Below are positions 113 through 50,834 of a stretch of DNA of 50,834 bases, one piece after another (within the stretch, counting starts at the first letter, position 1; every line of letters starts with the position of its first letter). This stretch comes from Folioceros fuciformis (lineage: Eukaryota). The position numbers and the translations under genes are program-made. The notes under the pieces are model-generated. The model had not been told where the DNA came from and made no database searches. It saw only the letters and a program-made list of their open reading frames with translations. Where the stretch lies: contig JBNGIO010006284.1 of the NCBI GenBank assembly GCA_049999805.1, positions 352,001-402,834 of the forward strand. The letters run 5' to 3'.

Positions 113-3100
113 GTGTGAGCTGCTGGTGTCGGCTGGAGGTGTCACTGAGAAGTTGGCTTCCGGATTGCTGAAGCCGTTTCAGGCGCACCTGCGGGCTGCC
201 GAAGAGCAGATCGCGCAAGGTGGCTATTCCATCAAACTGGATCCCAAGGCAGCAGGAGTTTCCAATGGTGCCGCTCCTTGGTTTTCTAAAGGAACGCTGG
301 AAAGGTTGGTTCGACTGCTCTGCTCTGCCCTGCCCTGCCCTGCCGCAGTGCAGCTTGCGGACGCCTTGTCTCAAACGTGTGTTGCTGCTGGTGTCGTCTG
401 CTGGTGGCCAGGTTTGTCCGTTTTGTGAGCACCCCGGAGGTGCTGGAGCGCGCGAGCACAGTCGAGGCTGAGCTCTTGCAGCTTGAAGTGGGAATGAGCA
501 TGCAATCAACTGATTGTGCTCGGGTGAGCATCTTTGGACCTTTATCGTTTCCTGTGTTGATTCAATGGGTTTGCTGCTTCTGTGATTACTAAACCATCTT
601 GGTTCTTAGGTTGATGATTCGGCAAGAAATGAACCACCAACTCCACCACCTGGTATGGCATTTTGGGTGTACCTCTCTATGCAACTTCATTCGTTTGGAT
701 GGGATCGATGCTTCGCTCTTACGCTACTTTCTGTCCCGCAGCGTCAAAGCAGGCATATGGACTTGGCATGGACAAGAATGCAACTTCTCTGAAGGTGAGG
801 ATCCAGATTTTGCCAGTCTCGTTGTCGATCAAGCCTTCGGCAGGCTTGCCTTATTCCGTTGACCACTTTCTGCAGCAGTTGAGGCGGGAATCTATTGATG
901 GGCCCGATGTCGGAGAGAGTTCAAAGTACGTGCACACTATCCGATTGCCATTGGACAAGTGTATGTCGTTCCCGACACCAGCTGTCAGTTCTCACCGAGC
1001 TTCTGAATTGTGTAATGTAGGAGGAGGTTGCTCAGGGCTATGGATGCGCGCCGATTGATGCTGCAGAAGGAGCAGGGCATGGCATTTGCCCGTGCCTCCG
1101 CAGCGGGCTTTGACATTGTTCACATGAATGACTTGATTATATTTGCTGAAACATTTGGAGCTGTCCGTTTGCGGTAAGCTGCCAAGTCCTTATCCAGGAG
1201 CCCAGTGAGGGCGTTAGTCTAACGAGTCGCATTGGATCTGACGTCTTGTGCCACCGTCTTTGCTGAAGATGTGTCTGGGCGTCTCGGGGATTCCTCTGAG
1301 TCTTAACCGCTCGTTTCTTTTGTCAGGGAGGCTTGTCTAAAATTTATGGCCCTATGCAAAAAGAGACAAGAGGCTGGTCTGTGGATTGAGGAGCTGGATT
1401 TGACAGCTGCAGAAGCTGCGTCTGTGCGTTCCGAGGCTCTAGGTGGGCCTGAGAAGCAGGAGATGTGGTCGGATTTGCACAGCGAGCCTGGCGAGTATAA
1501 GCTTGATGCAGGCTATGATGATGTCAACCGGGCACAAGGCAATCACTATGGAGATGGAAGAGGCTACTACGTGGAGGACTTCACTCACAACGATCCTCAC
1601 AAGAGGGCAGGGCAGCACTACGGCGAAGGAAATGGGGAGCTATCGTCGAGTTACCGTCCACGGGGCAAGCCTCACCAGTATAACATGATCAGCCAGCGTC
1701 AAACAGATGATCCTGGCAGTTACGGGCACGAGGGATCTGGCAGGTTCTCGGATGATGGGTTGATGGGTCCACGACCATCGCTTTGGCAGCAGTCATCCGC
1801 TGTTCCCCCTGCCGTCCAGTTTCAGCCCCCATCTCTCGGCAAGTTTGCAGGTGCAAGATTGCCAGGCGAAGGAGCTTACCCTGAGCATGGAGCCGGTGAC
1901 TTCAGAGATGCAGAATCTGGCAGATCCACGAGGCCCAGGGCTACCTGGGCTACAATGTCCCCCAGACAGGTGCCAAACTTCCCGCACATGGGCGACGCTG
2001 ACATGTATGAATCGAGGGCTCGTTACGATATGGTGTACAATGGGGGAAGCCAAGCTGGAAGAGGTCTCCCACCTCCTCTAGGCAGCCATGTGCACCAAGG
2101 ATATCCTGAAAACCACCTTCAACAGGAGAGGCAGATGGAGCAACAGCATCTGCACCCATCCAATCAGCTACACTGGCAGATGGGTCAAATTTATCCAGAC
2201 GGGTATGAAGCAAGGGGCTCTCCTCGCGCTCCTTCCCAAGCCTATGGTGATCCAGAGGCTACGAGTGAGATGGATCATGCAGGTGGGGTTCCGGCTCCTC
2301 CCAGGGAGTGGCACGTCTCCACCCCACCGAAAGTTCAACATCCTTCAGCGGTGTTCCAGAACAATGGCATCCACACAGGACCTACTTCTCAAGACAGTCC
2401 TTCCAAGGATGTGCGTTCTCCGACGGACGCGAATACCAACAGGCGTCTCGCCCGCAGGTCTACATCTCCCAAACGGAGGTCACCTTCCCCGATGAGAAGA
2501 GTTCAAATCGGGCGTAACGGGCCACGGCGTCCAGGCATGGTGGTCATTCGAAACATCAACTACATCACCTCGAATTCTCAAGAACGTGAGAAGGACAAGG
2601 GCAACGCCAAGGGATCAGGCGATGATGATGACGAAGAGAGCGAGTTAGAAACTGATTCTGGCGAGGAACCCCTTGCCCGCAAGGCTGAGGGTGTTCGAAT
2701 GAGTGTTCAAGATGCCATCAGCCTTTTCGAGGGCAAGAAGCGGGAGTCTGCAGGAGTCTCGAAGAAGAAAGGTGGAAAGAAAGATGGCCGCAGAGGGTCT
2801 GTGGAGAGTGCGAGTTCAGTCTTGTCGCACAGGGGATCATTCAAGCGGTGGAGCGGTGCTAGTGAGCTCAGCTCGGATTCCGTGGCACAATCGCAGCTCG
2901 AGCATGAACTGGAAGATGAGGTCGACCAGAACACTGGAGACTCACATGCCAGCTTCGATAAACAGAAGCACGATCTTGGAAACGAGATGGCTCTCATGAG
3001 TGGAATGGCTGGCAAGAGCTCGGATTTGTTGGGAGCCAAGGTGTCGAGCGCTTCAGCTAACTATGGAGATCATCAATCTGCCTGGCAAGCTGACCAGTTT

Positions 3101-6100
3101 GAAGCAGAGTTGAACAGTCGTTACGATCGTGGGAACAAGTCGGCAATGGAGGAGTCATTCATGTTCCCAGAGAGGGAGGTTCGTACTAAAAATACCAGGG
3201 ATCTTTCAACTCACACTTTTGAGGAGAGCCATGATCCCCCAAAGGCATATCCGTCTGAAGAATTCATGGTGGTGCCCGAAAGACCGCGTGTGGACGCTCC
3301 CAAGCAAAGGCTTTTGTCTGATGATGTGGCCGAAGTGCAGGGTTCTGTGAGCGGGCGCGGGCCCATAACGGATGACTCTTTCATGCTTGGCGAACGCTCG
3401 GAGCCGACGAAATCTGGAATTGCCCCGGCCTCTCGGGTGTTGAACCCTGACATGGATTTGAAGGACGACAGGAGGGATGAGCTGAAGTATAAAGTTGACG
3501 ACTCGTTCATGGTTGCAGCCCGGCAGGAGCAGAGCAGCAGCCTGTGGCGAATGGCCGTGAACATGGAGTCTGAGCTGCCCACTAATCAGTACAGCTCTGC
3601 CGATGTGCAGGCGAAGGATGATGCAAGTCCGTATGAACCGGAGGATGTATTTATGTTGCCTGAGCGCAACGTGTCCAGAGATTCATTTGGCAGAGCCTGG
3701 AACGCCACAATCGACTATGACGTGGAATTGCTGCGTGACGGGCAGCAGGGAGAAGATGATGAGGTGAGGAGCGCGGCAGCTGACGGCGTGTCTCCGAAGT
3801 CCCAGAAGGGCAGGTTCTATGACCAGTACCAGGAGAAGAGAGAAGCTAAGCTTCGTGAAGAGTCGGGCCCGAAGAGGGCCGAACGAGAAGCGAAGTTGAA
3901 AGCCATGCAGGAGGTGTTGGAGAGGAGGAAGGCTGAAATGACGGCGAGGACTGGAAGATCTGCAGACAGGAGCAATTCCTTGGCTGAGGCACAGGCTCGT
4001 GCTGAGAAACTGCGAGCTTACAAAGCTGGATTAGCGAGGAGCAAGAAGGAGCAGGTACTTCCGATTACTGATTGAATGATGCTTTGGTACTGCATTCAAG
4101 CAAAGCAGTGCCCTAGTCGTGTCATGCGTGGGGGCTCAGGTGATTGTGGTGGGTGATGTTGTTGGATCAGCTTTCGGTGGTTTTTTCCTGGGGCAGTGAC
4201 GGCAGATGCAGTGGTCGTTGTGCATGTTATTTTCCATGGTTCTTTTAGCCTTCTAACAACGTATTTCACATCTTCAGGAAGAGGAAGAGAAGAAGCGTCT
4301 GGAGGAGCTAAGAGCTCAGCGCCGGGAAAGGATTGCAGCGCGAAGTAGTCCTACCTCAGTTGGAACTCAGTCCGCTGCTTCGACACCTCGAGCCTCTGCC
4401 AGACAGCCTCAGCCGCCTACACCAAAACCCAATATTGTGAGGAAGCTTTCCCCAACCCCTCAGAAGGCAACAACTTCGGCAAGCACTCCTCGAAGTTCTA
4501 CCCGTGGCGTGGCTACATCTTCTCCAAGGCCGCCTCCTAAGAACTCCCCTAGCACTAGGCGGACTACAGGTGCAGGTCAATCTGGCAATGGGGAGAACCC
4601 GCTGAGTCGCTCTGTGCCCTCTCTGGCAGAGCTAAGGAAGGAAAACACCAAGCCGTCAGGGGGGCGCACGGGAACAAACTCACTTCAAGACAGTAAAGCT
4701 GTGCTTCCTGCAACCAAAGCCACCGGCCCTGGAGGACGAGCAAAGCCATCCAGTGAAGCTGCGCTGGTGGAGGCCAATGGGGGTGTTCCTGCGGCATCTC
4801 GGGCTTCTAGGGTAGGTGCTGATGACAGAAGGAAGAGTGTCACGGGCAGGAAGAGTCTCTCGGGTGCCACGGAACCCAGATCGCACTCTGTCCCTGCGCA
4901 GGAAAAATCTGTGTTGGGACCGCTCAAGGTCTCCAGGGATCTGCTTCCTGAGCCTACCGTGGCTAGCAGAGTTACCAGGAGGACTGCAGCACCTGCCCAT
5001 GACGCCAAGCCTTTCTTGAGGAAAGGGACCGGCATTGGTCCAGGAGCTGGTCCAGGTGTTCGCAAGCTGAAGGATGCTCTTGCTGAAGCCCAGAAGGCCC
5101 AGGATGAGGAGGATGGTGCATCAAATGCTGACACTGCGTCTGTCGTCGATGCTCCATCTACTCCGGCTTTACGGGTGCATCTCAGTGATGCGGACTCAAT
5201 CTTTGCAGACTCATACCCGGAGGCTGTTGCCCCACGCGTCACTATTACTGACGGAGAGGGTGTGGAGAGAGCTGGCGTGGGCCCTGGTCTCACTGCAATT
5301 AGAGCCCCGAGATCAACCGCCCCTGGAGCAGTGACTTCTGATTCATCTCTCGAAACCCAGGCGACAGGTGTAGGACGCCAGGATTCCGTTATTCATGAGA
5401 GCTCAGGTCGCGGGGATGTGAAGGAGCTTGATGTCCAAGCCCCTGCTGAAGATTTGTCTATTCCTATTGTGGCTCCTTCTATCAAGCCCATTTCTCCTCC
5501 TAGGATCCAGACCAACTACCCTGTGAGAGTTTCAGAGCCATCTTCTGCCATCAAATCATCGTCAGCACCGAGTGTCGGGCAAACTGAAACCTATGAGGCT
5601 CCCCATGTAGAATTGACAAGGTCTCCCACGCATCCTTCCATTTCAGTCTCAACTCAGGACAGGGACCCTGAACCTAGACCTGCTCCTCCTGCTGTCCCTC
5701 CAGTCCCTGCAGCTCCTTCTACCCCCTTGCCTGTGAAGAAAACTCTGCTGGAGGCTTTGATATCCAGTGAACCTTATGTTGCTCCCTTGGCACCAGCCTC
5801 CGCCTCCCCTGCCAGAGGTGAGGTGTATGCTCGTGCCTCTGATGCAGGTGACCATGATGGTTCGTATGCTGCAATGTCAGGGTCACCTTCCCATGTCCGG
5901 TCACCACATTTTTTGGCGACTGTTGAGCAGTACAGTGCGCCCATTGCCTTAGCTTCTGCCTCGCCAGCAGCAAGCCCTGCTTCTCAAACTTTGCCTCAAC
6001 TGCGGCACACTGTGTCGCCAAACTTAGAGGCTGTCAAAGCTGCTGCCCCTGCACCGAAGAAGTTGGCTGCTGCTCAGAAGGCAGCATCGGTAAATCAACA

Positions 6101-6733
6101 TGCCCCTCCGAAGGAGACTCAGAAGTCTGGAGGTCTGAAGAGGTTGTTGAAGTTTGGAAGAAAGAGTACTGGCAGCAGCACCAGCAGCATTTCGAATACC
6201 AAGACAGACTGGGTGTCTGCTTCAACCACCTCTGAAGGAGATGATGAAGCTGATGATGCAACCTATGGTGATAGCAAGCCTCATGGAAATGGTTCGAAAT
6301 CCAAGGCACCCACGAACGCAAAGAACTCCAAGAACATGGGTCACGCCGTGGATTTCTCTTCAGATGGAATCCATGATGACAGTTTCAACGACTACAGCTG
6401 TAAGTGCACCGACGACTTGGCATGTGCTTTCATCCGCTACCACCGTACCTCCCTATGTAATTCTAACCCTCTCCTGATGCTGCAGCCTCATCGGTCAGGA
6501 GCTCGATTCCAGCACCTCCAGCCAACTTCAAGCTGCGAGAGGATCACCTTGCCGGTGGAAGCATGCTAAAAGGTACCAGGCTCTGAAGACGAGAACCCCC
6601 AAGGACTCTTACCTTCACTTTCGTACCTTGCTTGCTAACTCCTATTCTGTCTGTTTGTTTTCCAGCTCCACGGTCCTTCTTCTCACTTTCTTCTTTCCGA
6701 AGTAAAGGCAGTGAAGGGAAGTACAGGGCTTGA
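113..6733 (+). CDS. COP1-interacting protein 7 (CIP7)-like protein, multi-exon, first exon lies upstream of the window
   Basis: Inferred exons 113-304, 412-523, 610-652, 742-794, 879-925, 1021-1173, 1327-4054, 4278-6399, 6486-6572, 6666-6733, with GT-AG boundaries. Family motifs: [94 protein letters not shown], and C-terminal [39 protein letters not shown]. Confidence 0.88.
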
Positions 6734-8048: not shown

Positions 8049-8678
<630 letters not shown>

Positions 8679-9987
8679 CGCTCTAAGGCTTCCCCTTGCT
8701 CCTGCTGTTGCTACTTGCCGCATCTGTGTCTGGATTTGTATTGGAACAAAGCTCACTTGCAGGACCCTCAGGCTCGGTTCTCCCTCGCCCGGTAGCTAGT
8801 GTTGGAATTTTGCTTCACTCTCAGAGTGCAGGATTGGTACCAGGACATGCATTGGCTTGAGGACATGATATCTACTTCTTTTTCTCCACAAGGCACTTGG
8901 TCTGTTTAGTATTCTTTCTATGTTGTGGAAGAGCAACAACAGCAATACGAGGCCACCATCAAGTTTGTCAGTCTGCAGGCAACATAGCACACAATAGGAC
9001 ATCAGTTTTTCCCCCTTTTCTCTTTCCGTGACGAAGATGTTCAGGAGTGTATTTCGTTGTACCCTCTGGGACTGTTTTCTCTAAATCTATACTTGTTGCA
9101 CAAGACTTCTCTTCTCCGTTTCTTTCTGGCTGTGAGCGTCTCGGTGTCTCCATTTGGTATGATGGATGAACACCTGTCGGGAGCTAACTTCTCCTTCAAA
9201 ACAGAGCCGAGAAGCCTGGAATTTATTTATACCACTCTGCCAGGGCCCATTTGTGCAAGCCGCATGTTGTAAGCCCGCCCCGGTTTTGTGGGCAGTTCGT
9301 GGAATCTATCTTCGGGAGCCAAATCTCGTAGGAGTGAGCTGCAGGATCGCAGCACCAGCTCTGTCGTTTGAACTGCCGCTTGTTCATCAGTTACTGTCCA
9401 TTCGAAGCCTTCCAGAGCACGATATTCGGCTTCGCACGAGGTGTCTGTGATCTGCCTGCAACTGTTGGCTGTCGACGCCAAGCAACCAGTTCACAAAGTC
9501 TCTTTGATACACGATTATGTACGCCTGCACCGTAGCCCGTCATGACTGTTGCCCATTGCCTTGTGGGCATGGACGTCAACAGTGTACTGCTTGCTCTACG
9601 TTGCATGAGAGCACACTGCTGGTGAAGGACTCAGTCCTCAGATGCTGCCACAATGCACGAGCATGAAGAAGGGTACTCGGGGTTGCAACAGGTGACACTC
9701 GGTCACTTGCGTGTTGGAACAATCAAACGGAAAGCAGAGGATGGGCTGCATTGGTGTCGTTTACTCACTAGCCACGGCTGCGGTGGGAGGATCTACTCGA
9801 CAGTTACCAGGGCAGGGGCCTGGGGAGACAGCAGGGCTTTGCTCCGGGGGGTATCCTGGCAACCACAAGGGTCCAGGTCCGAGTCCGAGGACAGCGTGGG
9901 GATCTATCGTCTTTGAGGACGGCCTTGTTGTGGTGCCATCAATGGGAAGGAATAGCCTGCTGCTGTGTGGTGGCGGCAGGGAAGTTC

Positions 9988-12900
9988 ATGGAGCTCAGCA
10001 GAAGGGCAGGCACCAAGGCTATGCCCTTTTGCCTACGCCAGATAGGAAGGAGGAATGCTCAGCAACAGGCTTCTCGAGAAGACCCCTGGATGAGAGGGTG
10101 TGCAGAGGAGCCGGTCAGCGAGGCTGTTGAAACCTTGCAGCTTCTGGTGCACCAGGGTTTGTATGTGCCCACATTCGTGCTGTATCGGTTCCTCAGGACG
10201 TGCATGCTGGAGAAGGATATAGCTGTGGGCAGCTTTCTGCATTCTCTTGTCGTCGCCAGTGGGTATGAAGGGGACAAACTTTTGGCCAACCACACTATCC
10301 GCATGTTTACCTCGCATGGAAGGTTGCAGGAAGCATTACAGGTGTTTAGGAGATTCAATTCTCCAAATACTTTTCTGTGGTCTTCCATCATTTCGGCGAA
10401 TGTTCAATGTGGTCAGCCTGTGCTGGCGGTAGAAATGTATTGGAGGATGCGACAGTCTTCTGTCATGCCAGACAATCACGTCTTTGTGGCAGTTCTGAAT
10501 GCGTGTGCCAGCACAGCAGACGTAACCTCAGGCAGGCAGGTCCATGCCGATGTCCTCACTAGTCCTGTGAAGCCTGATGTCTTCGTGGGCAGCAGCTTGG
10601 TAGATATGTATGCAAAATGTGGGAGCTTAGACGATGCCCGAGTGGTGTTTGACAACTTGGCCACAAAAAATGAGGTTACATGGTCTGCCATGCTTGCAGG
10701 ATATTCTCAGCATGGGCAAGGAACGGAGGTCCTTAATCTCTACGCCAGTATGCAAAATGAGGGCATCACTCCAGCTGATCATATCACCTTTGTCTACCTC
10801 CTCAAAGCGTGCGCCAGCACTGGTGCTCTACTTCAAGGGAAGCAGCTGCATGCCGAGATTCGAGTAAGAGGGCTTGGAGCTGATGCGGTCGTCAGCAGCT
10901 GCCTAATTGACATGTATGCGAAGTGTGGAAGTATGAAAGATGCTCGATGGGTTTTTGACAATCTAGCGGTGAAGAATGGGGTCACGTGGAATGCCATGCT
11001 GGCTGGATATGCTCAATATGGGCATGGTGAAGAAGCCCTTACTCTCTTCGAAGATATGCCTGACACTGAGACAGATCACGTGACGTTCTTGTGCCTATTC
11101 AAAGCATGTGCCAGCATCGGAGCAATAGATCGGGGAAAACAGCTTCACGCTCGGGCTCAGGCGAAAGGACTAGCGGCCGACAAAGTAGTAGGGAGCTGCT
11201 TGGTCGATATGTACGCTAAATGTGGGAGCTTGGACGAAGCCCGTCGGGTGTTTGACTCGTTGGGGACAAAAGATGTAGTGTCTTGGAATGCCATGCTCAC
11301 AGGATATGTGCAGCAGGGTGCTGGACATGAAGCCCTGAATCTGTATGCAATTATGCAGCAAGAGGGATTCATTATAGCCAATCAACGCACGTTTCCGTGC
11401 CTGATAACAGCGTGTGGCAGCATAGGGGCACTAGATCAGGGGCACCAACTCCATGCCCAAATCCGGGAAAAGGGACTTGAAACCGATTTGATTATCAGCA
11501 GCTGCCTGATCGATATGTATTCGAAATGTGGGGTGCTTAGTGATGCTTGCAGGGTTTTTGACGTTTTGTCTACAAAAGACGTGGTAACCTGGAATGTCAT
11601 GCTTGCAGCATATGGTCACCATGGACTCGGTGAAGAAGCTCTTCAATGTTATGCAAAAATGCTCCTAGAAGGTGTGAGTCCAGATGAAGTCACTTTTCTT
11701 TCGCTTCTGTGTGCATGCAGTCATTCTGGGCTAGTAGACCAAGGTTTTGGGTACTTCGAGTCCATGAGCAAAGTTTATGGTTTGACTCCAAGTATAGAGC
11801 ATTATGTGAGTATGATTGACATCTGTGGACGTGCTGGACATTTGACAAGGGTACAAGAATTGCTGCAGAAGATGCCCATGCAACCTGACCTATCCACATG
11901 GCTGTCTGTTCTGGGCGCCTGTCGGAAGCACGGTAACGTTGTGCTAGGGAAAAGGGCCTTTGATTGTGCAATACATGTGGAGCCTAAGAATCCTTCTGCA
12001 TATATGTTGATGTCACACATCTATGCTGATGCTGGCATGATGGATTGTGCCAAGAAGCTGTGGAGTTTGAGAGTTACGGAATGTGCGTGGAAGGAGCCTG
12101 GTCTGACTTGGATCACACTTGATCAGCAATCTCACACATTCACTGCTGGGAGCCAGGGGGATTCAAAGCATGAAGAGGTGTATGACATGTTGCAACAGAT
12201 AACCATAAGGCTGAAGGCTCGTTACCCGTCTGGATTGACTAGTATCCCACGCAGGCACTACTGCACCCGTCGGGAGAACTGGCTGGCAGAAAAGGAGGGC
12301 TCCGTCTCCAGACGTTCAGAGAAGCATGCAGAACAGGCACAAATCCGTCTGATAGCGGGGAACACTAGTAGTCAAGGCTGTCACAACTTGGCAAATCCTA
12401 TGTCAAAGAAGGATAGCAGACCGGTGTATGGACATGCATCTGACATGTTTGAAGCAACACCTTTGGCTTCTTCTGATTTTTGTTGGAGCAAACTGTGTGA
12501 GCAAGGGCAGCTCAGTCAAGCTGTTCACTTGTTAGATCAACTTCTCGATCAAAGATCCTGTGTTTCAATATCTACCATCTATGAGATCCTCAAGAGCTGC
12601 ATCTCAAAGAAGGATCTGGTTGCTGGCAGTATCGTCCATGCTCTCGTCTTGATAAGTGGTTACGGCTCAAATGTGTTTTTGTCCAACCACATTATTCGCA
12701 TGTATGCTTCACATGGGAGGTTGGAGGAAGCGTTGCAGGTCTTTGCCAGCCTGGATAGTAGAAATGCTTATTCATGGTCTTCCATCATCTCCGCGCATGT
12801 TGAACATGGCCAGCATATGCAGGCAGTAAACTTGTACTGGCAGATGCGGCAGTCTCCGGTGATGCCAGACCAGCACACGTTTGTAGCAGCTCTAAAAGCA

Positions 12901-14658
12901 TGTGCTGGTGCAGCAGATCTGGCATCGGGCAGGCAAGTCCATGCGGATGTTGTCAACAGTGGAATGAAGCTCAATCTGTTCGTCGGAAGCTGCCTTGTGG
13001 ATATGTATTCGAAATGTGGGAGATTATCTGACGCACGCAAGGTGTTCGACAGTCTGGCCACAAAAGATGTAGTGACGTGGAATGCGATGCTTGCAGCATA
13101 TGTACGGGATGGTCTTGGGCAAGACGTCTTAACTCTTTACGCAGGGATGCAACAGGAAGGCATCGCACGTGCTACTCATGCCACATTTGTTTGCCTCCTG
13201 AAAGCGTGTGGCAGTATTGGTGCCCTGGATCATGGCAGGCAGATTCATCGTCAGCTTCAGGAAAGGCGGCTAGATGATGACCCTGTTGTGGGCAGTGCTC
13301 TTGTTGACATGTACGCCAAGTGCGGGAGCTTGGATGATGCACGTGCAGTGTTTGACAAATTGGCTGGAAAAGATGTGGTTACATGGAACACGATACTTGC
13401 AGGCTATGTTCAGCATGGCTTTGGGCATGACGCGTTGTCCCTGTACACAGATATGCAACAGGAGGGCATGACTCCAGCTGATGATGTGACAACTCTCTGC
13501 GTACTCAAAGCATGCGCCATGGTTGGTGCGTTGGATCAAGGCAAGCAGCTTCACGCCCAGGTTCGAGAAATGGGACTAGAAGCTGATGTGGTCATTGGAA
13601 TGTGCCTTGTTGACATGTATGCGAAATGTGGGAGTTTAGAGGATGCACGCAAGATATTTGACAGTCTGGCGACAAGAGATGTGGTCACCTGGACTGCAAT
13701 GCTTGCAGGATATGCTCAGCATGGACTTGGGCGGGAAGCCCTCACGCTCTATGAGAGTATGCATGCGGAGGGTACCACGAACGCCAACCATGTCACCTTT
13801 GTCTGCCTCCTGAAAGCATGTACCAGCATCGGTTCATTGGAGCAGGGAAAGCAGCTCCATGCCAGGATCCAGGAGGAACGACTCGCCAAGGATGCAATTA
13901 TCGGCAGCTGCCTTCTTGATATGTACTCAAAGTGTGGGAGCTTAAGCGACGCTTGCACAGTATTCAACAACCTGGCCACAAGAGATGTGGTTACCTGGAA
14001 TGCCATGCTGGCAGCATATGCTCATCACGGGCTTGGTGATGAGGCCCTGCGATGCTACGAACAAATGCAGCTTGCAGGCACCCGTCCAACCGGAGCCACA
14101 TTTCTTTCCCTCCTTTCTGCATGCAGTCACGCTGGCCTAGTGGACCAAGGTGTCGAGCACTTCGAATCCATGAGCAGAGACCATGCCATCAGTCCAGACA
14201 TCGAGCACTACGTGAGTTTGATGGATCTCTATGGGCGTTCTGGAGACTTCTCAAAGGTAAAAGACATTCTGTCAACAATGCCAATGCAGCCTGATCTGGC
14301 CACGTGGTTGTGTGTGATGGCTGCCTGTCGGAAGCATGGCAATGTTGAGCTGGGAGAACGGGCCTTCTGGCATGCAGTGCATCTGCAGCCTAAGCATGCA
14401 TCGGCATACATACTGATGTCGCACATCTATTCTGGGGCTGGCCTGTTCGACAAAGCGAAGTATGTCGACATCGCAAGAAGAAGAGAAGGTGCCTGGAAGG
14501 AGCCTGGCCAGAGCCGGATCGAGTATAATCGAGAGACGCACAATTTTGTGGCGGGAGATTGCAACCACCCTGAGCTCGAGGTATTACATGAATTGTTACA
14601 CGATTTAAGTTTTCGGCTGAAAGAAGCCGGGTTCAATTTACAAGAATGTCAGACTTGA
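9988..14658 (+). CDS. PLS-class PPR protein made of two tandem PLS-E1-E2-E+ modules (organellar RNA editing factor family)
   Basis: Uninterrupted ORF 9913-14658, first in-frame ATG at 9988. Repeated P-L-S triplets (LVDMYAKCGSL, VVTWNAML, TFVCLLKAC) and two L2-S2-E sets (FLSLLCACSHSGLVDQG...KEPG and FLSLLSACSHAGLVDQG...KEPG). The true start or an upstream exon is uncertain. Confidence 0.92.
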   Translation: MELSRRAGTKAMPFCLRQIGRRNAQQQASREDPWMRGCAEEPVSEAVETLQLLVHQGLYVPTFVLYRFLRTCMLEKDIAVGSFLHSLVVASGYEGDKLLANHTIRMFTSHGRLQEALQVFRRFNSPNTFLWSSIISANVQCGQPVLAVEMYWRMRQSSVMPDNHVFVAVLNACASTADVTSGRQVHADVLTSPVKPDVFVGSSLVDMYAKCGSLDDARVVFDNLATKNEVTWSAMLAGYSQHGQGTEVLNLYASMQNEGITPADHITFVYLLKACASTGALLQGKQLHAEIRVRGLGADAVVSSCLIDMYAKCGSMKDARWVFDNLAVKNGVTWNAMLAGYAQYGHGEEALTLFEDMPDTETDHVTFLCLFKACASIGAIDRGKQLHARAQAKGLAADKVVGSCLVDMYAKCGSLDEARRVFDSLGTKDVVSWNAMLTGYVQQGAGHEALNLYAIMQQEGFIIANQRTFPCLITACGSIGALDQGHQLHAQIREKGLETDLIISSCLIDMYSKCGVLSDACRVFDVLSTKDVVTWNVMLAAYGHHGLGEEALQCYAKMLLEGVSPDEVTFLSLLCACSHSGLVDQGFGYFESMSKVYGLTPSIEHYVSMIDICGRAGHLTRVQELLQKMPMQPDLSTWLSVLGACRKHGNVVLGKRAFDCAIHVEPKNPSAYMLMSHIYADAGMMDCAKKLWSLRVTECAWKEPGLTWITLDQQSHTFTAGSQGDSKHEEVYDMLQQITIRLKARYPSGLTSIPRRHYCTRRENWLAEKEGSVSRRSEKHAEQAQIRLIAGNTSSQGCHNLANPMSKKDSRPVYGHASDMFEATPLASSDFCWSKLCEQGQLSQAVHLLDQLLDQRSCVSISTIYEILKSCISKKDLVAGSIVHALVLISGYGSNVFLSNHIIRMYASHGRLEEALQVFASLDSRNAYSWSSIISAHVEHGQHMQAVNLYWQMRQSPVMPDQHTFVAALKACAGAADLASGRQVHADVVNSGMKLNLFVGSCLVDMYSKCGRLSDARKVFDSLATKDVVTWNAMLAAYVRDGLGQDVLTLYAGMQQEGIARATHATFVCLLKACGSIGALDHGRQIHRQLQERRLDDDPVVGSALVDMYAKCGSLDDARAVFDKLAGKDVVTWNTILAGYVQHGFGHDALSLYTDMQQEGMTPADDVTTLCVLKACAMVGALDQGKQLHAQVREMGLEADVVIGMCLVDMYAKCGSLEDARKIFDSLATRDVVTWTAMLAGYAQHGLGREALTLYESMHAEGTTNANHVTFVCLLKACTSIGSLEQGKQLHARIQEERLAKDAIIGSCLLDMYSKCGSLSDACTVFNNLATRDVVTWNAMLAAYAHHGLGDEALRCYEQMQLAGTRPTGATFLSLLSACSHAGLVDQGVEHFESMSRDHAISPDIEHYVSLMDLYGRSGDFSKVKDILSTMPMQPDLATWLCVMAACRKHGNVELGERAFWHAVHLQPKHASAYILMSHIYSGAGLFDKAKYVDIARRREGAWKEPGQSRIEYNRETHNFVAGDCNHPELEVLHELLHDLSFRLKEAGFNLQECQT

Positions 14659-14754
14659 AAGGGTCAAGGGTTAAAACGGGATACGTAATTTTCTTGAACG
14701 TTACATGGTTCCGTTCCGGTATATGTACACCACCTCAAGTTATTCGGGTGACTC

Positions 14755-15747
14755 TTAACGTATGATTTGTCCCGGCCCCTTGTTCCGAGGAAGGGGCTTT
14801 ATGGTTACAGATCTCTTGACAACGGAGGCACGAGGTGCCAGATGAGACTTGGACGAAGGCTTGAATTTTCCGCCTATCGAGTCATGTAGGCCAGCTTGAT
14901 TGATGCGTCGCCTCTTCGCATGCAGTTCCATCTCCGTATCTACCGGCGGCACACCAGAAAGATTTTGTCTGCCAGTAGCACAAGTCTCCGAGAATATAGA
15001 GGACGCAAGAATTGCTGCCCGCTTGTTCCTCCGATTGGATTCAAACTTGCTAGAGAAATTCACCCTCGCAGCTACCTGCGCATCTTCCTGTGAGTGAGGA
15101 AGCAACCGAATCCCCAAACCCTTGCTTCTGGCCTCTGCTTCCTCACTTGCCACACGCTTCTTCTGCTCCCTTAACTTAGCACGAAGAACCTTGTTCTTTG
15201 AGTAGTAGTCAGCATTTCTTGCTTCCGAGCACCGCTGCAGACGTATCAGCTCAGGTTCTGCCTGCTTGCCATTAGCGAGATCCTCTCCCAAATGTTCCAA
15301 CCTTGAGAATGGATCAGCCAAATCAGCCTTACTTTCGTCGCTTGGAAGCACGAGTGTTTCTGCATCTCTCGCGTCGTACACCTCAGTCTTCCGCTCAGCT
15401 CCAGCCACGATAACATATTCGCAGTTCTTCGGGTCGGTGTGAATCTCAATCTTATGCCTGCAACAGGCAGTCTTCATCGTGAAGCTCCATATCTTGGTGC
15501 TGTAATAGCTCCCGACCTGCTTCTTTTCAGCGTTGAAGCGCACCCCCTTGGCTATCATGGCATTGCATCCTCCACACCATATGTTGAAGGGCATTTCGAA
15601 CCGGATAACTAGAATCCCTCGATCGATCTTCTTGGCCCGCTCCCGCAGTGCATGTTGGCCATGAAACTTGTTCAAGCCACCTTGATCCGGAGTCCATTCG
15701 GGTGGGTAGTAGAAATTATCAGCACGGGCTGCTGCTAGCGTCGACAT
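14755..15747 (-). CDS. CWC16/YJU2-family splicing factor (CCDC130/YJU2B-like), intronless
   Basis: N-terminus MSTLAAARADNFYYPPEW, GILVIRFEMPFNIWCGGC, GVRFNAEKKQVG, TDPKNCEY. Confidence 0.93.
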   Translation of the reverse strand: MSTLAAARADNFYYPPEWTPDQGGLNKFHGQHALRERAKKIDRGILVIRFEMPFNIWCGGCNAMIAKGVRFNAEKKQVGSYYSTKIWSFTMKTACCRHKIEIHTDPKNCEYVIVAGAERKTEVYDARDAETLVLPSDESKADLADPFSRLEHLGEDLANGKQAEPELIRLQRCSEARNADYYSKNKVLRAKLREQKKRVASEEAEARSKGLGIRLLPHSQEDAQVAARVNFSSKFESNRRNKRAAILASSIFSETCATGRQNLSGVPPVDTEMELHAKRRRINQAGLHDSIGGKFKPSSKSHLAPRASVVKRSVTIKPLPRNKGPGQIIR

Positions 15748-18055: not shown

Positions 18056-20733
18056 ATGGCAGCATTGCAGAACAACTTCCATAATCCGGACTTCGTGCAC
18101 AGCACGTCAGGGGGGAAGTTGTGGGTTAATGGACGCGGTTCGAAAGACAGCGCTGTGAGGCCTGTAGTCGAGCACGGAGCTGAGTGTGAGGCTTCTGGCA
18201 GGTTGTGCGCAGTCTTCTTGTCTGCGTTCAGCTGGTTTTGATGAGTTAAATGCGCCTGTTGTGTTCTACACAGAGACTCTTTGTATCTTTCAGGTGTGAG
18301 AATGATTCGGAGGAGACTGAGACATGGGAAAGACTGTGTGAGGAGGGGCAGCCGAGTGAGGCAGTGGCAGCTTTGGAGCATTTGGTGGGAAAGGGGACTC
18401 CGGTTCCTTTGTCCCTTTTTTATCGTGTCCTCAGAGGATGCATATTACAGAAAGATCTGGTTCTTGGCAGGCGTGTACACCACCTTGCTGTTCAGCGTGG
18501 GTATGATTCCAGCCCATTCTTAGCAAACCACTTCATCCGTATGTATGCATCTCATGGGAGTTTGCGGGACGCCAGACAGGTTTTCAGCAAACTAGCTTCT
18601 CCAGATCTTTTCACGTGGGCCTCCATTATTTTGGCTCATGCTGATCACGGACACCCTAAACAGGCTATAAAATTCTATCTACAGATGCGCCAATCGGATG
18701 TGAAACCAGACAGCTATACACTCGTGGCAGTTCTGAAAGCATGTGCTCGGGCAGTGGATCTGGTTTCTGGCAAAGAAGTTCATGCGGACATTTTGGATTG
18801 TGCAATTGAACCGAATGTATTTGTTGGAAACTGCCTTGTCGACATGTATGCGAAATGTGGGAGTCCGGTCCAGGCTCGGAGGGTGTTTGACAACTTGCCC
18901 ATGAAGACTGTGGTGACATGGAATTCAATGATAGCAGGGTATGCTCAGCACGGGCTTGGCCATGAGGCCCTTGAGCTCCATTCAAGGATGCAACGAGATG
19001 GCATCAGTGCTCCCAATCATGTGACTTTTCTGTGCCTGCTGAAGGCATGTGGTAGTGTGGGAGCTTTACATGAGGGGAAGGAGTTGCACTTGCAGATCAG
19101 GGAACGAGGCTTGGACTCGGACGTGGTGGTTGCCAGCAGCCTAGTGGACATGTATGCAAAATGTGGCAGCTTAGGAGATGCCCGAGCTGTGTTTGATAGA
19201 TTGAGCAAGAGAGATGTGGTGGCCTGGACTGCTATGATAGCTGGATATGTCCAGCATGGGTTTGGTCAAGAAGCGCTTGCACTCTACACACGTATGCAAC
19301 ATGAAGGTGTGATGCAAGCCAATCGTGTCACCTTTGCATGCCTCCTCAACGCTTGTGCCAGTGTTGGAGCTTTACGTCAGGGCAAGGAGCTTCACTCACA
19401 GATCCAAGAAAGCAGGCTGGAAGGTGATGTGGTTGTCGGCAGCAGCCTGGTGGACATGTATGCAAAATGTGGGAGCTTAGAGGATGCTCAGAAAGTTTTT
19501 GACAGACTGCCCGCGAAGAATGTGGTGACATGGAATGCCTTAGTTGGGGGCTATGCTCAGCATGGACTTGGGCAGGAAGCCTTGGATGTGTACAAAAGGA
19601 TGGTGCTGGAGGGCGTTGCAGCCGACCGTGTGACGTTTTCGTGCTTGCTGAAAGCATGTGCGAGCATAGGAGCTGTGGATCAGGGGAAGCAACTCCACTC
19701 ACACATCCAGGAAAGACGACTTGAATCAGAGGATGTGCTGGCCAGCTGTCTGGTAGACATGTATGCCAAATTCGGGAGCTTGAATGATGCTCGGGAGCTG
19801 TTTGACAGATTACCCAGCAAAGATGCGGTGACATGGAATGCGCTTTTGAATGGCTATGCCCAGCACAACAATGTGCAATTGGCGATGCAGTGCTTCGAAG
19901 AGATGCGGCATCATGGTGTCCACCCCAACAGCTCCACATTTGTGGGTCTACTTGTGGCATGTAGCCATGCTGGCCTGGTGGACGAGGGTAAACAGTATTT
20001 TGCTGCAATGAAGGATGCCCATGGCATCGAGCCGTCGGTGTACCACCACAACTGCATGGTTGATCTCCTTGGACGGTCAGGCCGGCTGGATGAAGCAGAA
20101 AAGCTCTTGCAGACCATGCCACACAACACCGACATCGTAGGCTGGATCTCTCTCCTGAGCGCTTGCAAAAGCCATGGTGACGATACCCGGGCATGGAGAT
20201 GCTTCCACTCTATCACTGCCCTGGAACCTCAAAACTCAGCTGCCTATGCTCTGCTGGCGAGCATATATGCCTCAAGAGGCCGATGGGGAGAGGTAGAAGC
20301 CATCGAGAGCCTGAGAAAAGCTGCGGGTGCTTGCAAGAAGCCTGCGAGGGCCTGGATCGAGGTAAACAACAGGGTTTCTGCATTCATGGTCGGGGAAGAA
20401 AGAAATGACACGTCCTGCAAGCTGAACAGTGTGAACCACCAGTTCCTAGACCCAAGACCTCATGTTCACGTCCAACACTCCAAGCCGGTGACTGAAGCAG
20501 AAAAGGAAGACGCCCTATGTGGCCACGCTGAGAAACTGGCCTTAGCATATGGCCTTCTCAACACCCCAGACGGCACCACTTTACTGGTCACCAAGAACCT
20601 TCGTATGTGCGATGACTGCCACAACGGCACCAAGATGATGTCGAGGACGGAGAAGCGTGAAATCATCGTGAGAGACGCCCACCGAGTCCACCGCTTCCTC
20701 GACGGCTGCTGTTCTTGCGGTGACCAGAATTGA
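18056..20733 (+). CDS. PLS-E1-E2-DYW:KP (KPAxA-type) PPR protein, candidate RNA editing factor
   Basis: Main exon 18294-20733. Probable first exon 18056-18201 (ATG, GT donor, in-phase 92-bp intron). About 17 PLS motifs, E1/E2, then KKPARAWIEV...LCGHAEKLALAYGL...KNLRMCDDCH...REIIVRDAHRVHRF...CSCGDQN. Confidence 0.93.
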
Positions 20734-46448: not shown

Positions 46449-49400
46449 TCAGGGCTCCACACGGAGTAGATTGTTTTGGACACTGGTATCGCGCATGACC
46501 ATCTCCCTGCGGTGGTCGATGGTCCAGATGCCATCCACGATGAACTTGATCTCATAAACTCCAGGGTAGAGCAGCAAATCCAGACCCCAAAGCATGGGCC
46601 CTCGAGAACCGTCAAAATTGGGTATCTCAGACCTAAGATCTGGCTGAAAAGGGAAAAAATGTTGCCAGCCATTAAAACTGCCAGCCAGTTCGACTTTGGT
46701 GCCTTCCCCCCACCATTCAACAGACACCTTCTTGAGCCGTGACACGGCCACCTCAGCATCCTGCAACTTCCTCCTCTCCTCTTCCAATTCCACCTTGGCT
46801 TGAGCAATATCCGTGGAAACTTTGCCTTGCACGAGCATAAGCTCAGCTTTCATTTCTAGCAGCTCTTGTCTAAGGCTTAAGACCTCCGCTTCTCGGAGTT
46901 GTAGGGCTGATTTGAGGCTATCAATCTCAATTTGTGCCTGTTCCTGGAGCTGGACATCTACCTCCTTTCGTTTCTCTGCCAACCGCCCTATTTCTTGCTG
47001 CTTGGCCAAAATGCTGAAGATAATCCGATCTCTATCCTGCTGCTCAAAAGTTGCGTCCAAAGCAGACTCCAGCTGCAACTTTGCTTGCAGGATGGGACCC
47101 ATTTGTGCGGCAATAGTCTCCTCCCTCTCTGGGACGACACCATCTGGTTGATCTGCTTCCCAAGAGAGACCATCGGAGTGATAGTCATAATCTGCAATCC
47201 TCTCAAAGCCCTGGACATCGTTCATAGCAAACATTTCCTCGTTCCCTTCTTGAGAGTTCACCTCGTCATCTGGCTGCAGGCCAGAGCTTGCAATATCAAT
47301 TTCTCCGAGTGCTTGGGGCATGGCAGATTCATTCGGCCACAAATTTCCGTCGTTGTTAAGTTTCTTAGCTTCCTCTAAGACACCGGACTTCGTGTCCTCT
47401 TTGTCACGCCACTCAGTTCTTGCTCTGAGAGATTCCCGCAAGACTTTCAATCCTTCAGCACCTTTCCTAATCTCCAGCAGCTTCTGCCTCAACTGATCTC
47501 GAGTCTCCCTTAGCTTCTTGGTAGAATCTTCTTGTCCTGTGCTGAGCTTACCAATACCACCAATACCGCCAGATGGGGTTTCAAAGGTCCCAGACTCTTC
47601 CACAATGCTCGGCAGACCTGTGCTCAAAAACAACCGTGCCCTTTCCTGGAATGACAAGTGGCAGACAGTCCTCTCATCCGGAACACCCTGTGACTGTGGG
47701 TCAGATACAACAGGACTGACACTTTTACTCACCGGATTCACAAAATCTTGTTCTGAGACTGGAGCAGAACCCTGCTGTGCTAAGTTATCCGTCTCAGAGA
47801 GTTGTCCTTGTTCTGCACTCCTTTCAGACTCTTGCAGAATGCTCGACAGTCCCGTGCTCACAAACAGTCTTGCCCTTTCCTGGATTGACAGGTCAAATAC
47901 AGACCTCTCATTTGAGACAACTTGAGACTGTAAGTTAGGGACAACTGGACTTACATTTTTAGTTCCCGGATTTGTAGAGTCATATTCAGAGACTGGAAGG
48001 GAACTCTGCTGCACTGATCTCCCCTTCTCCGAAAGTTCCCCATGTTCTGTCTTCAGCTTTTCAACACCGCCAGATGCGGTTTCCAAATTTGAAAGTCCTG
48101 TGCTCAAAAACAACTTTGCCCTTTCCTCGACAGACAGGTCAAAGAGAGACCCCTTGTCTAGAATAGCTTGAGCTTGCAAATCAGTTACAGCAGGACTGGT
48201 ACTTTCCGTCCGCACATTTTCAGAATCCTGTTCTGTGGCCAAGCCCGATCCACCCTGCCATGAATTCTCTTGCTCAGAAAATAGTCCTGTTTCAATATCC
48301 AGCTTGCCAAAATCACACAATTGAGTTTCCAAGCTTCCACGCCCTGCTAGAAGGCTAGACAGACCTGTGTTCCTTGCTTTTTCCTCAATTGGCAGGTCCA
48401 AGTCATTCCTTTCATCTAGACCAGCATGAGATTGTAGCTCCTGAACAACAAGACTGTCCCTTTCAGTCTGCATAATTGTAGACTCTTGCTCTGTGATTGG
48501 AACAAAACCCTGCTGTCCTAATTTCTGCCTCTCGGTAAAATCTCCTTCTGTCGTGTTCAGCTTGTCAATATCACCAGATGGGGCCTCAAAACTTACCGAG
48601 CTCAGAAAAAACCTTGCTCGTTCCTCAATTGACAGATCCAAGACAGATCTCTCACCTGAACCAGCCTGAAACTGAGGCTCCTGTACAACAGGAATATCAT
48701 TTTCATTCCACAAACGATCATTGGACTCTTGCTCTGTGATTGGAACAGAACCCTGCTCTCTTGATTCCTGCTTGTCCGTAACTTCTTGTGCTGTTTTCAG
48801 CTTGCCGATGCCACCAGATGAGGCTTCCTGAGATTGTAGCTCCTGTACAACAGGACTACCACTTTCAGTCCGCAGTTCTACAGACCCTTGCTTTGTGCGA
48901 GGAACAGAACCTTGCTTAAGTAAATTCTCTGTCTCGGCAAATGTTCCGTCTGATGTATTCAGCGTGCCTGTACCACCTGATAAGGCTTCCAAGCTTTCTG
49001 CACTCAGAAACAACCTATCACTTTCCTCAATTGACATGACCAAGACAGACCTTTCATCTGAACCAGACTTAGATTGCAGCTCCTGTACAACAAGACTGTC
49101 AATTTCAGTCGACACATTTGCAGTATCTTGCTCTGTGATTGGAACAGGACCCTGCCGTCCTGATTTCTCCATTTCAAAAAGCTCTCCTTCCGCTGTATCC
49201 AGCTTGTCAATAACACCAGAAGGAGCTTCAGAGCTGCCCGACTCTTCCAGAGGGCTAGACAGTCCCTTGCTCGAAGGCAGCATCTCTCTTTCATACGCTA
49301 GCAGATCAAAGACATAACTCACATCTGAATCATCATGAGATGGTGCGTCAGGTACAGCCAGACTGACCTGTGCAGTCCCCAAATTTTCAGAATCATGTTC

Positions 49401-50834
49401 TGTAGTAGGAGCAAAGCTCTGCTGTTCCAAAGCATGCCCCTCACTGCGGAAAACGTCAGGTTGTTGTGCTCCGGTTTCAGAGCTTGCAGACTCGTGTACT
49501 CTGGACTCTTCCAAAAGGCTTGGCAGTCCTGTACTCGCGAGTAAAGTTGTTGTTTCCTCTCGCGACAGTCTTGAGACAGACTTATTCTCTGTACCAGACT
49601 CGTATCGGGAGGGTTGCACCACAGGATTGATATAGTCCACGTGCTGCAAATCTCCAGCATCCGAGACCAGGGACACAGAAGCCTCCTGCCCAACTGTTGG
49701 ATACTTGCTAATTGAAGCCGAAGCAACTGGTTCTGTGGAACTGGAGCTTGGAGCTTGTTCCTGGATATTGGTCTGGCCTGTAGCCACACACAACCTCGCT
49801 CTTTCCTCTGATGACAAGTGTAGCAAAGACCTCTCGGTTGTGCCAGCCTCAGGTTGCAGGCGTTGTTCACTAGGACTGACATTTTCTGTACCCTGTTCTG
49901 ATACTGAGTCGGAGGCAACCTGCCCTAAGAAGCTCCGCACCTCGGTAGGCAACGAAAGGTCCTCTTCTTGAGGAACCCCTGTTTCAGAGCTTGCAGACTG
50001 TCTTAGACTACTTGACTCTCCTGTACTCACCCACAAGCTTACTTGTTGCTCGGATGACAAGACCGAGACAGACCTCTCTTGTGAATCAATCTGAGGTGGC
50101 AAGCTAGATGCCACAGGACTGGAATCCTCGTGGAGACGATCCTGTTTCAAGACTGAGGAGATAGAAGCCTTCTGCTCTGAGGCCAACGCCGCCGCAGTCA
50201 CTACCTCATTTAAAGCTCCAACGTCCTCCCTCGGTCTGGGGACACCCACACTACTAAATGGCACCACCTGCTGAGTATTATCCTCAGCAATGACTTCACC
50301 TGGAGGACTGGCACGGCCGGGGTGCTGCAGTGTTGCAACATTTGGTACAGAAGGAGAATCCAGCCGTGGGAAGCTAAACCAACTCCCCCTGGCCTGTTCT
50401 GCACCTACATCCTCAATTTCCTCTGTCAATGCTTGCCCTGACACCACCTCTACCTGCACACTCACGTTCACACTAGAAGTTAAACTGCTCGCAAGCTCCC
50501 CCCTACCAGCTCGGCCCCCACAGTCAGAATCACTATTGCTCCCGCTGCTCGATCCTCTCCGAAATCTGGGATTCCCGAGCATGCGGCTCACAGCCTGATA
50601 CCCCCGACTCCGCACCGCATAAGCAAGATCCGAGCGACCCCTACTCGTCAGCTCCTTGATAGACGGCAACTGGTTGGCCGGCAGATCTTGCTGGGCAATG
50701 AATTGCGCCAACTGCTCCACCAGGAGAATGTCTTTCTTGCTGAGCTTTTCTCCGCCTATCTTCCTCCTTGCCTGCCGGTTCCCCTGCCCAAAACTGCCAG
50801 AACTAGAGCAAGTCACGCGGCAGAATCCCTGCGT
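46449..50834 (-). CDS. PROTEIN TARGETING TO STARCH (PTST3-like) coiled-coil plus CBM48 protein with a large internal repeat array, 5' end outside the window
   Basis: Frame is open to the window edge. N-terminal LPSIKELTSRGRSDLAYAVRSRGY domain typical of PTST2/3, a coiled coil, and C-terminal CBM48 (VELAGSFNGW...LYPGVYEIKFIVDGIW...NNLLRVE). No introns are needed across 4.4 kb. Confidence 0.87.
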   Translation of the reverse strand, partial: TQGFCRVTCSSSGSFGQGNRQARRKIGGEKLSKKDILLVEQLAQFIAQQDLPANQLPSIKELTSRGRSDLAYAVRSRGYQAVSRMLGNPRFRRGSSSGSNSDSDCGGRAGRGELASSLTSSVNVSVQVEVVSGQALTEEIEDVGAEQARGSWFSFPRLDSPSVPNVATLQHPGRASPPGEVIAEDNTQQVVPFSSVGVPRPREDVGALNEVVTAAALASEQKASISSVLKQDRLHEDSSPVASSLPPQIDSQERSVSVLSSEQQVSLWVSTGESSSLRQSASSETGVPQEEDLSLPTEVRSFLGQVASDSVSEQGTENVSPSEQRLQPEAGTTERSLLHLSSEERARLCVATGQTNIQEQAPSSSSTEPVASASISKYPTVGQEASVSLVSDAGDLQHVDYINPVVQPSRYESGTENKSVSRLSREETTTLLASTGLPSLLEESRVHESASSETGAQQPDVFRSEGHALEQQSFAPTTEHDSENLGTAQVSLAVPDAPSHDDSDVSYVFDLLAYEREMLPSSKGLSSPLEESGSSEAPSGVIDKLDTAEGELFEMEKSGRQGPVPITEQDTANVSTEIDSLVVQELQSKSGSDERSVLVMSIEESDRLFLSAESLEALSGGTGTLNTSDGTFAETENLLKQGSVPRTKQGSVELRTESGSPVVQELQSQEASSGGIGKLKTAQEVTDKQESREQGSVPITEQESNDRLWNENDIPVVQEPQFQAGSGERSVLDLSIEERARFFLSSVSFEAPSGDIDKLNTTEGDFTERQKLGQQGFVPITEQESTIMQTERDSLVVQELQSHAGLDERNDLDLPIEEKARNTGLSSLLAGRGSLETQLCDFGKLDIETGLFSEQENSWQGGSGLATEQDSENVRTESTSPAVTDLQAQAILDKGSLFDLSVEERAKLFLSTGLSNLETASGGVEKLKTEHGELSEKGRSVQQSSLPVSEYDSTNPGTKNVSPVVPNLQSQVVSNERSVFDLSIQERARLFVSTGLSSILQESERSAEQGQLSETDNLAQQGSAPVSEQDFVNPVSKSVSPVVSDPQSQGVPDERTVCHLSFQERARLFLSTGLPSIVEESGTFETPSGGIGGIGKLSTGQEDSTKKLRETRDQLRQKLLEIRKGAEGLKVLRESLRARTEWRDKEDTKSGVLEEAKKLNNDGNLWPNESAMPQALGEIDIASSGLQPDDEVNSQEGNEEMFAMNDVQGFERIADYDYHSDGLSWEADQPDGVVPEREETIAAQMGPILQAKLQLESALDATFEQQDRDRIIFSILAKQQEIGRLAEKRKEVDVQLQEQAQIEIDSLKSALQLREAEVLSLRQELLEMKAELMLVQGKVSTDIAQAKVELEEERRKLQDAEVAVSRLKKVSVEWWGEGTKVELAGSFNGWQHFFPFQPDLRSEIPNFDGSRGPMLWGLDLLLYPGVYEIKFIVDGIWTIDHRREMVMRDTSVQNNLLRVEP
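47530..50090 (-). repeat. Coding repeat array, ~10 diverged copies of an ~80-aa unit
   Basis: Recurrent (D/E)ERSV(L/F)DLSIEERARLFLSTGLSS...GKL.T...QQGSVPITEQ(D/E)S...SPVV.(E/D)LQSQ, also visible at the DNA level (e.g. ctctgtgattggaaca at 48490, 48732, 49131). Confidence 0.9.

Follow-up and report, generated by a model that had tools for sequence, protein, structure and literature searches.

A stretch of 50,834 nucleotides (nt) of Folioceros fuciformis (GenBank assembly GCA_049999805.1, contig JBNGIO010006284.1, positions 352,001 to 402,834 of the forward strand), referred to below as the window, contains an open reading frame (ORF) of 1556 codons plus stop at 9988..14658 (+) in which two complete pentatricopeptide repeat (PPR) modules of the PLS class (tandem P, L and S motifs) follow each other. 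On balance, this ORF appears to be a gene fusion of two tandem PLS-class PPR editing-factor paralogues, the DYW domain of the first having decayed, and to encode a specificity factor with two RNA addresses that would act with a deaminase supplied in trans. The parts are ordinary and the arrangement is unusual: PLS-class PPR proteins usually combine a single array with one C-terminal E or DYW set and address one site or a few similar sites.

Reading frame and domain organisation

The frame lies on the + strand, with a TTG at 9913, the first ATG at 9988 and a stop codon ending at 14658, and is uninterrupted over 1556 amino acids (aa). Upstream of the first ATG, it is open back to a stop at 9769, and this part contains no ATG. 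The 72 open codons 5′ of the first ATG (9769-9987, +) and a separate low-depth contig of the sequencing run X1 at 9190-9569 possibly belong to a 5′ untranslated region or to an upstream exon.

In the predicted protein (P0001), Pfam detects PPR_2 (1e-134), PPR (1.7e-132) and E_motif (1.3e-17), the latter in two separate stretches; DYW_deaminase is not found at E<=0.01. Both modules are made of tandem P, L and S triplets (motifs of 35, 35 and 31 residues in P-L-S order), and a terminal P2-L2-S2 followed by E1 and E2 is found twice, at residues 532-702 and 1334-1504. Frame, Pfam matches and motif map agree with what had been proposed from the letters alone (the sequence-only reading): two full PLS-P2L2S2-E1E2-PG/E+ sets in one ORF with no stop between them. 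The landmarks then quoted are also in place: the PG boxes of modules 1 and 2 lie at residues 702 (nt 12091) and 1504 (nt 14497), and the restart between them at residue 837 (nt 12496). Instead of targeting peptides, the strings then described as leaders represent P0, the incomplete PPR-like motif that opens each module.

All the following features are on the + strand. The N-terminal extension (residues 1-26, 9988..10065) is basic (6 K+R, 1 D+E) and is, by its composition, a possible candidate for an organelle presequence. Such an extension is found only on module 1: the 26 residues before module 2 (800-825) include 3 K+R and 3 D+E. The PPR array of module 1 (residues 27-634, 10066..11889), delimited by motif map and Pfam, consists of P0, L-S, four P-L-S and P2-L2-S2. 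It is followed by E1 and E2 (residues 635-702, 11890..12093; Pfam E_motif and motif map) and by a PG box with an E+-like stretch (residues 702-747, 12091..12228). The latter has no Pfam match and scores 25.6 bits, over positions 1-47, with a custom hidden Markov model (HMM) built from 27 PG-box-to-DYW tails; more sequence comes after it, without a stop. The spacer core (residues 748-825, 12229..12462), a probable vestige of a DYW deaminase core, separates it from module 2. The PPR array of module 2 (residues 826-1436, 12463..14295) has the same motif order and is followed by E1 and E2 (residues 1437-1504, 14296..14499; Pfam E_motif and motif map), then by the PG box and E+ stretch and the stop (14497..14658). 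This second E+ is detected by Pfam Eplus_motif at E=1.9e-4 (21.5 bits, under the cut-off of 24) and by the custom HMM (32.0 bits); the stop lies 7 codons past 'GF', the counterpart of the 'GY' of the profile in the E+ stretch.

The signature of the DYW subclass (HxE(x)nCxxC and a DYW-like C-terminal end) is absent from both modules, and no DYW remnant was found 3′ of module 2 in any frame (tblastn of 14300-15000). Judged by sequence, neither module carries a working deaminase.

The two modules as old duplicates

Each module has ~18 PPR-like motifs, and a map drawn from residue numbers gives the same order for both: P0-L-S-(P-L-S)x4-P2-L2-S2-E1-E2, then the PG box. The sole difference in motif length concerns one P motif (33 residues in module 1, 36 in module 2). 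Residues 28-746 and 826-1544 share 412 identities over 719 positions (57%), with one 3-aa gap and E = 0. Such agreement far exceeds chance. Given the same motif order and this identity with a single gap, the modules are tandem duplicates of a whole gene, from the first motif to E+. They are nearer to each other than to the neighbouring paralogue or to the public collections (best identity ~50% among the best 150 of 30310 matches).

DNA identity between the modules is 66% over 720 aligned codons (72%, 77% and 49% at codon positions 1, 2 and 3). For these 720 codons, three methods give 0.29-0.31 nonsynonymous substitutions per site (dN), 1.26-1.53 synonymous substitutions per site (dS) and a dN/dS of 0.20-0.23. 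Along segments of 100 codons, dN/dS is 0.14-0.34 in six; dS is not computable in the seventh. As dS is saturated, the duplication is old, not recent. On this codon comparison, the modules are old duplicates under purifying selection, both kept as protein.

The junction in independent assemblies

Run X1 contains 93% of the sampled words of 9700-14900. Its short-read contigs match the window without a mismatch. One of them covers 11985-13243, whole spacer included, with 0 differences and 0 gaps; five pieces of this run tile 10761-15070 and a sixth extends to 15392. X1 is possibly the window's own sample and therefore mainly excludes a missed stop or a mis-join. Run X2 comes from another organism and another study. 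Its 3031-nt contig aligns over its full length to 10608-13638, with 230 differences (92.4% identity), 0 gaps and a spacer of identical length; other pieces correspond to 9977-10622 (52 differences) and 13695-14597 (80 differences). Since the same indel-free fused layout is found in an organism diverged by ~8%, the fusion is real and older than that split. Runs X3 and X4 provide only ~40-nt pieces on conserved PPR motifs and thus no orthologue. None of the contigs shows a splice within 12091-12500.

PPR repeats are easily mis-assembled, and the short-read contigs include many joints between repeats that look like chimeras of paralogues; an artefact (missed stop, collapsed repeat or chimeric join of two PPR genes) could thus be envisaged. 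However, no such joint lies within 12091-12500, the X1 contig crosses the junction without any difference, the contig from the other organism and study is collinear over it, and modules that are 66% identical in DNA are too different to be collapsed. An artefact is therefore very improbable, and the assembly collapse or missed stop that the sequence-only reading had named among its possible refutations is not borne out.

The spacer between the modules

The E2 of module 1 and the P0 of module 2 are separated by 124 residues (702-825). This distance from PG box to module 2 compares with 132-138 residues from PG box to C-terminus in 27 DYW proteins. The first 46 spacer residues fit the PG-box/E+ part of the custom HMM. 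BLAST alignments to the DYW domains of the neighbouring gene and of protein P0149 continue through the spacer, in register with 'EK', 'CH' and 'SK'. In these alignments, the position of the His of HxE is occupied by Arg or unmatched, Q-G-C-H stands at that of CxxCH, and the spacer has no counterpart of the terminal ~15 residues.

Smith-Waterman scores of the spacer core against 27 DYW cores have a mean of 27.9, versus 23.1±2.35 for shuffled sequences; the mean is reached by 18 of 500 shuffles and the maximum score by 30 of 500. With the custom HMM, the spacer core obtains 1.7 bits versus -1.33±0.99, a score reached by 19 of the 842 scored shuffles (1000 made). All 78 codons of the core are free of stops in this frame, while the other two frames contain 3 and 6; the chance of 78 open codons from base composition alone is 0.023. 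The spacer core is probably a vestige of a DYW domain, from which the catalytic His, the first of the Cys in CxxCH and the ~15 terminal residues would have disappeared; the sequence-only reading had missed this likeness. A decayed DYW deaminase at this place would account for how the fusion arose. The boundary may also be drawn otherwise: Met805 may be the old start of the second gene, the DYW vestige then ending just past 'CH'. A single-sequence AlphaFold model of residues 603-927 (mean predicted local distance difference test 46, predicted template modelling score 0.27) is too poor to judge the folding of the spacer.

Probable origin and proposed mode of action

The fused gene probably derives, to judge from the spacer and the neighbouring gene, from a tandem pair of PPR-DYW genes through decay of the first DYW domain. 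The ancestor would have been similar to the DYW-bearing paralogue located 3.6 kb downstream. The deaminase of the upstream copy would have lost its zinc ligands, and an in-frame deletion would have removed the C-terminal end and stop of this copy, the intergenic spacer and the N-terminal extension of the downstream copy. The remainder would be the 124-residue spacer, i.e. E+ plus a dead DYW core. As the likely ancestral form (18250) stands beside the derived fusion at the same locus, the steps are traceable.

Through its single basic N-terminus, the entire protein (~170 kDa) would be imported into an organelle; as module 1 alone has a basic extension, module 2 would need the fusion to enter. 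Each solenoid would bind its own RNA sequence. Since there is no deaminase in either module, a DYW domain must be borrowed if the protein edits: each E1-E2-E+ end would recruit one supplied in trans, by analogy with E+-class factors and DYW2 or DYW1-like proteins. According to the available text of PMC7076377, E+ proteins of Arabidopsis borrow the DYW domain of DYW2, and CRR4 that of DYW1.

Base preference is set by the pairs of 5th and last residues in P and S motifs (PMC7190159, available text). In motif order, these pairs are NN, SD, SN, SD, SN, ND, SD, NN, SD, ND, VD in module 1 and NN, SD, SD, NT, SD, ND, MD, TN, SD, NT, VD in module 2. They are alike at 5 of the 11 P/S motifs and different at the other 6, and the modules should therefore address different RNAs, which fits the two targets suggested by the sequence-only reading. 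In the PPR code, S or T with N corresponds to A, S or T with D to G, N with D to U, and N with N to C or U. Module 1 would thus read Y-G-A-G-A-U-G-Y-G-U and module 2 Y-G-G-?-G-U-?-A-G-?.

Action on two addresses may reasonably be inferred. Selection for this action is possible, though doubtful: one import signal would serve two solenoids, which would work at two sites simultaneously or tether two stretches of RNA, be they two editing sites in a single transcript or two transcripts, and the dead DYW core would be a spacer or a dock for the trans deaminase.

Evidence against the fusion reading and alternative readings

Several results weigh against a fused two-address factor. Among the runs that match 9700-14900, none is recorded as RNA, and the contigs carry no information on transcript ends; a single mRNA and a single protein are predictions from the frame. 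No related double-module protein around the junction was found among proteins of 855-2723 aa (124 matches), nor among the best 150 of 30310 matches of a 1200-residue query to 1.84 billion representatives; among shorter proteins, none of 298 candidates reaches E<=0.001. The spacer core matches no Pfam family at E<=10, and its DYW likeness is weak (p about 0.02-0.06 versus shuffles). Its GC contents at codon positions 1, 2 and 3 (0.51/0.53/0.50) lack the GC1>GC2 pattern of the modules (0.57-0.59/0.41-0.42/0.50-0.52), as if the core were little constrained. Only 40 of the 346 X2 differences are listed, 39 of them within 10011-10555 (from the 52 of the 9977-10622 piece), and the spacer is outside the listed part. 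Lastly, two in-frame ATG codons just before module 2 make a shorter product, with separate expression of module 2, possible. Met805 (12400..12402, +), a possible ancestral or internal start, is located 28 residues before the conserved Trp of the P0 of module 2; Met820 (12445..12447, +), a possible internal start, is 13 residues before the same Trp.

These ATG codons lead to a rather unlikely alternative, in which the ORF comprises two working units in one frame. Module 2 would be expressed mainly on its own, from a transcript started in the spacer and with Met805 or Met820 as start codon, read-through would be tolerated and not needed, and the locus would behave like two E+-type PPR genes. The non-coding-like GC pattern of the spacer core fits this alternative. 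The distance from start codon to the conserved Trp of P0 is 33 residues in module 1 and 25 in the neighbouring gene; as that from Met805 is close to both, Met805 could be an old start codon. However, module 1 is not followed by any stop before 14656, so that any mRNA started upstream encodes the fused protein. The sequence following Met805 is not basic (3 K+R and 3 D+E over residues 800-825) and would make a poor presequence, and the exact spacer length is kept in the second organism (0 gaps).

Alternatively, the fusion could be on its way out: the joining deletion would have disabled one or both genes, the frame being open for lack of time and the protein useless. The loss of both deaminase domains and the failure of protein searches to find a related double-module form agree with this. 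The leader also evolves fast: in residues 1-61, the listed X2 differences affect all codon positions (4/6/6), and the third-position bias is seen only after this part (8/3/12 in the repeats, 12/9/18 overall). Against such decay, the 1556 codons contain no stop, and the 230 X2 substitutions come with 0 indels in 3031 nt, whereas many indels are expected beside as many substitutions in unconstrained plant DNA. The dN/dS of 0.2 between modules also argues against it, though the greater part of that interval may have passed before the genes were joined. The 39 listed differences, which fall in 212 codons, include 23 residue changes, create no stop and retain the start Met. A useless protein is unlikely. 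The two intact frames had been taken by the sequence-only reading as a sign of selection or of a recent fusion: selection is supported by a dN/dS of about 0.2 and by the absence of any X2 indel over 3031 nt; a recent origin conflicts with the dS of 1.26-1.53 and with the presence of the layout in an organism diverged by ~8%.

Neighbouring genes

A single-module PPR-DYW paralogue of 827 aa (18250..20733, +) is located 3.6 kb downstream of the fused gene, past a convergent Yju2B/CWC16 gene. This paralogue shares 48% identity with module 1 and 51% with module 2. Its DYW_deaminase domain (E = 3.8e-32) has intact HxE and CxDCH; it ends with G-D-Q-N, not D-Y-W. From these features, it is the likely ancestral form.

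The Yju2B/CWC16 (CCDC130) splicing-factor homologue (14755-15747, -; 330 aa) is a single intron-free ORF. Its stop codon is 96 nt from that of the fused gene, and an X1 contig (13995-15070) crosses both ends. The host is a land plant, and proteins of seed plants, lycophytes, mosses and liverworts are about equally distant from this one (63-69% identity), which has no closer named relative. A ubiquitin-conjugating enzyme (UQ_con, 9.3e-50) is encoded by another single intron-free ORF (8058-8678, +). The X1 contig on 8000-9028 has a depth of 256 and ends at 9028, those on the PPR gene having depths of 3-13, a contrast that even genomic coverage would hardly give; depth was not used as evidence.

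Two long ORFs of 909 and 710 aa (1346-4075 and 4437-6569, both +), rich in S, A, G, E, R and P, match no Pfam family; they possibly represent exons of a single disordered protein. On the - strand, an ORF of 1461 aa or more (46449-50834) runs off the window end; its S/E-rich, coiled-coil-like product has a C-terminal AMPK1_CBM glycogen-binding module.

Significance

A naturally occurring protein with two diverged arrays would demonstrate that joining whole modules is another way in which the family grows. The fused gene would offer a test of whether two solenoids can work independently when carried by the same chain. It would also offer a test of deaminase recruitment by an internal E1-E2-E+ end and of the decay of DYW domains into spacers. 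If true, the reading as a selected two-address factor would mean that engineered tandem PPR designs have a counterpart in nature, and would point to a way for editing factors to reach several sites with an unchanged code. If the protein is inert, the gene would be a snapshot of gene-family turnover.

Comparison with known systems

Large PPR surveys (e.g. on 1KP transcriptomes) could list such forms. A full-text search of the literature, without most subscription journals and without supplements, returned no account of a naturally occurring PLS protein that carries two E or DYW sets. The best named matches of the PPR modules (proteins of 855-2723 aa) are from ferns, Ginkgo and a lycophyte. Among seven long matches analysed with Pfam, none has more than one E set. 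An S2-E1-E2 match was found in 200 of the 264 collected proteins scanned; two such sets are present only in the fused protein and in four others, and in six further collected proteins other domains follow a single internal E set.

The four others, P0067 (Stipagrostis), P0077 (Aristida), P0078 (Nymphaea) and P0260, have, like the fused protein, two PLS-E modules in one predicted protein, with shorter modules. Their identity to the fused protein (~37%) indicates that they are not its orthologues. In the grass models P0067 and P0077, a non-PPR spacer leads directly into the second module, which has its own initial Met. The four may be gene models merged in annotation, or neighbouring PPR genes may have fused independently.

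Very long single-array PLS-E+ proteins (P0002, 1526 aa; P0004, 1612 aa; P0006, 1489 aa; P0008, 1264 aa) are similar to the fused protein in total length. Their P2-L2-S2-E1-E2-E+ ends are those most like the ends of the fused protein (best local alignments, 45-59% identity), and the C-terminus of P0002 is at about the same point as that of module 2. Unlike the fused protein, with its two modules, each has a single array, with a single E set at its C-terminus. Together with P0023 and P0027, these four are single-array PLS proteins of 1264-1612 aa with extended L-like motifs, some ending in E+ only.

PPR-DYW factors (the neighbouring gene at 18250-20733; PPR56 and PPR65 of moss; OTP86) have, up to E2, the same motif order as the modules of the fused gene. 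The neighbouring gene has HxE and CxDCH intact; both modules of the fused gene lack the zinc-binding signature. The E+-class factors of flowering plants (CLB19, SLO2, CRR4; partners DYW2 or DYW1-like) also have a PLS array, E1, E2 and PG/E+, and no working deaminase. Their catalysis is provided in trans, as would be, by analogy, that of the fused protein (PMC7076377, available text). They have one unit per chain, whereas the fused protein has two, the first with an apparent dead DYW core instead of a clean truncation.

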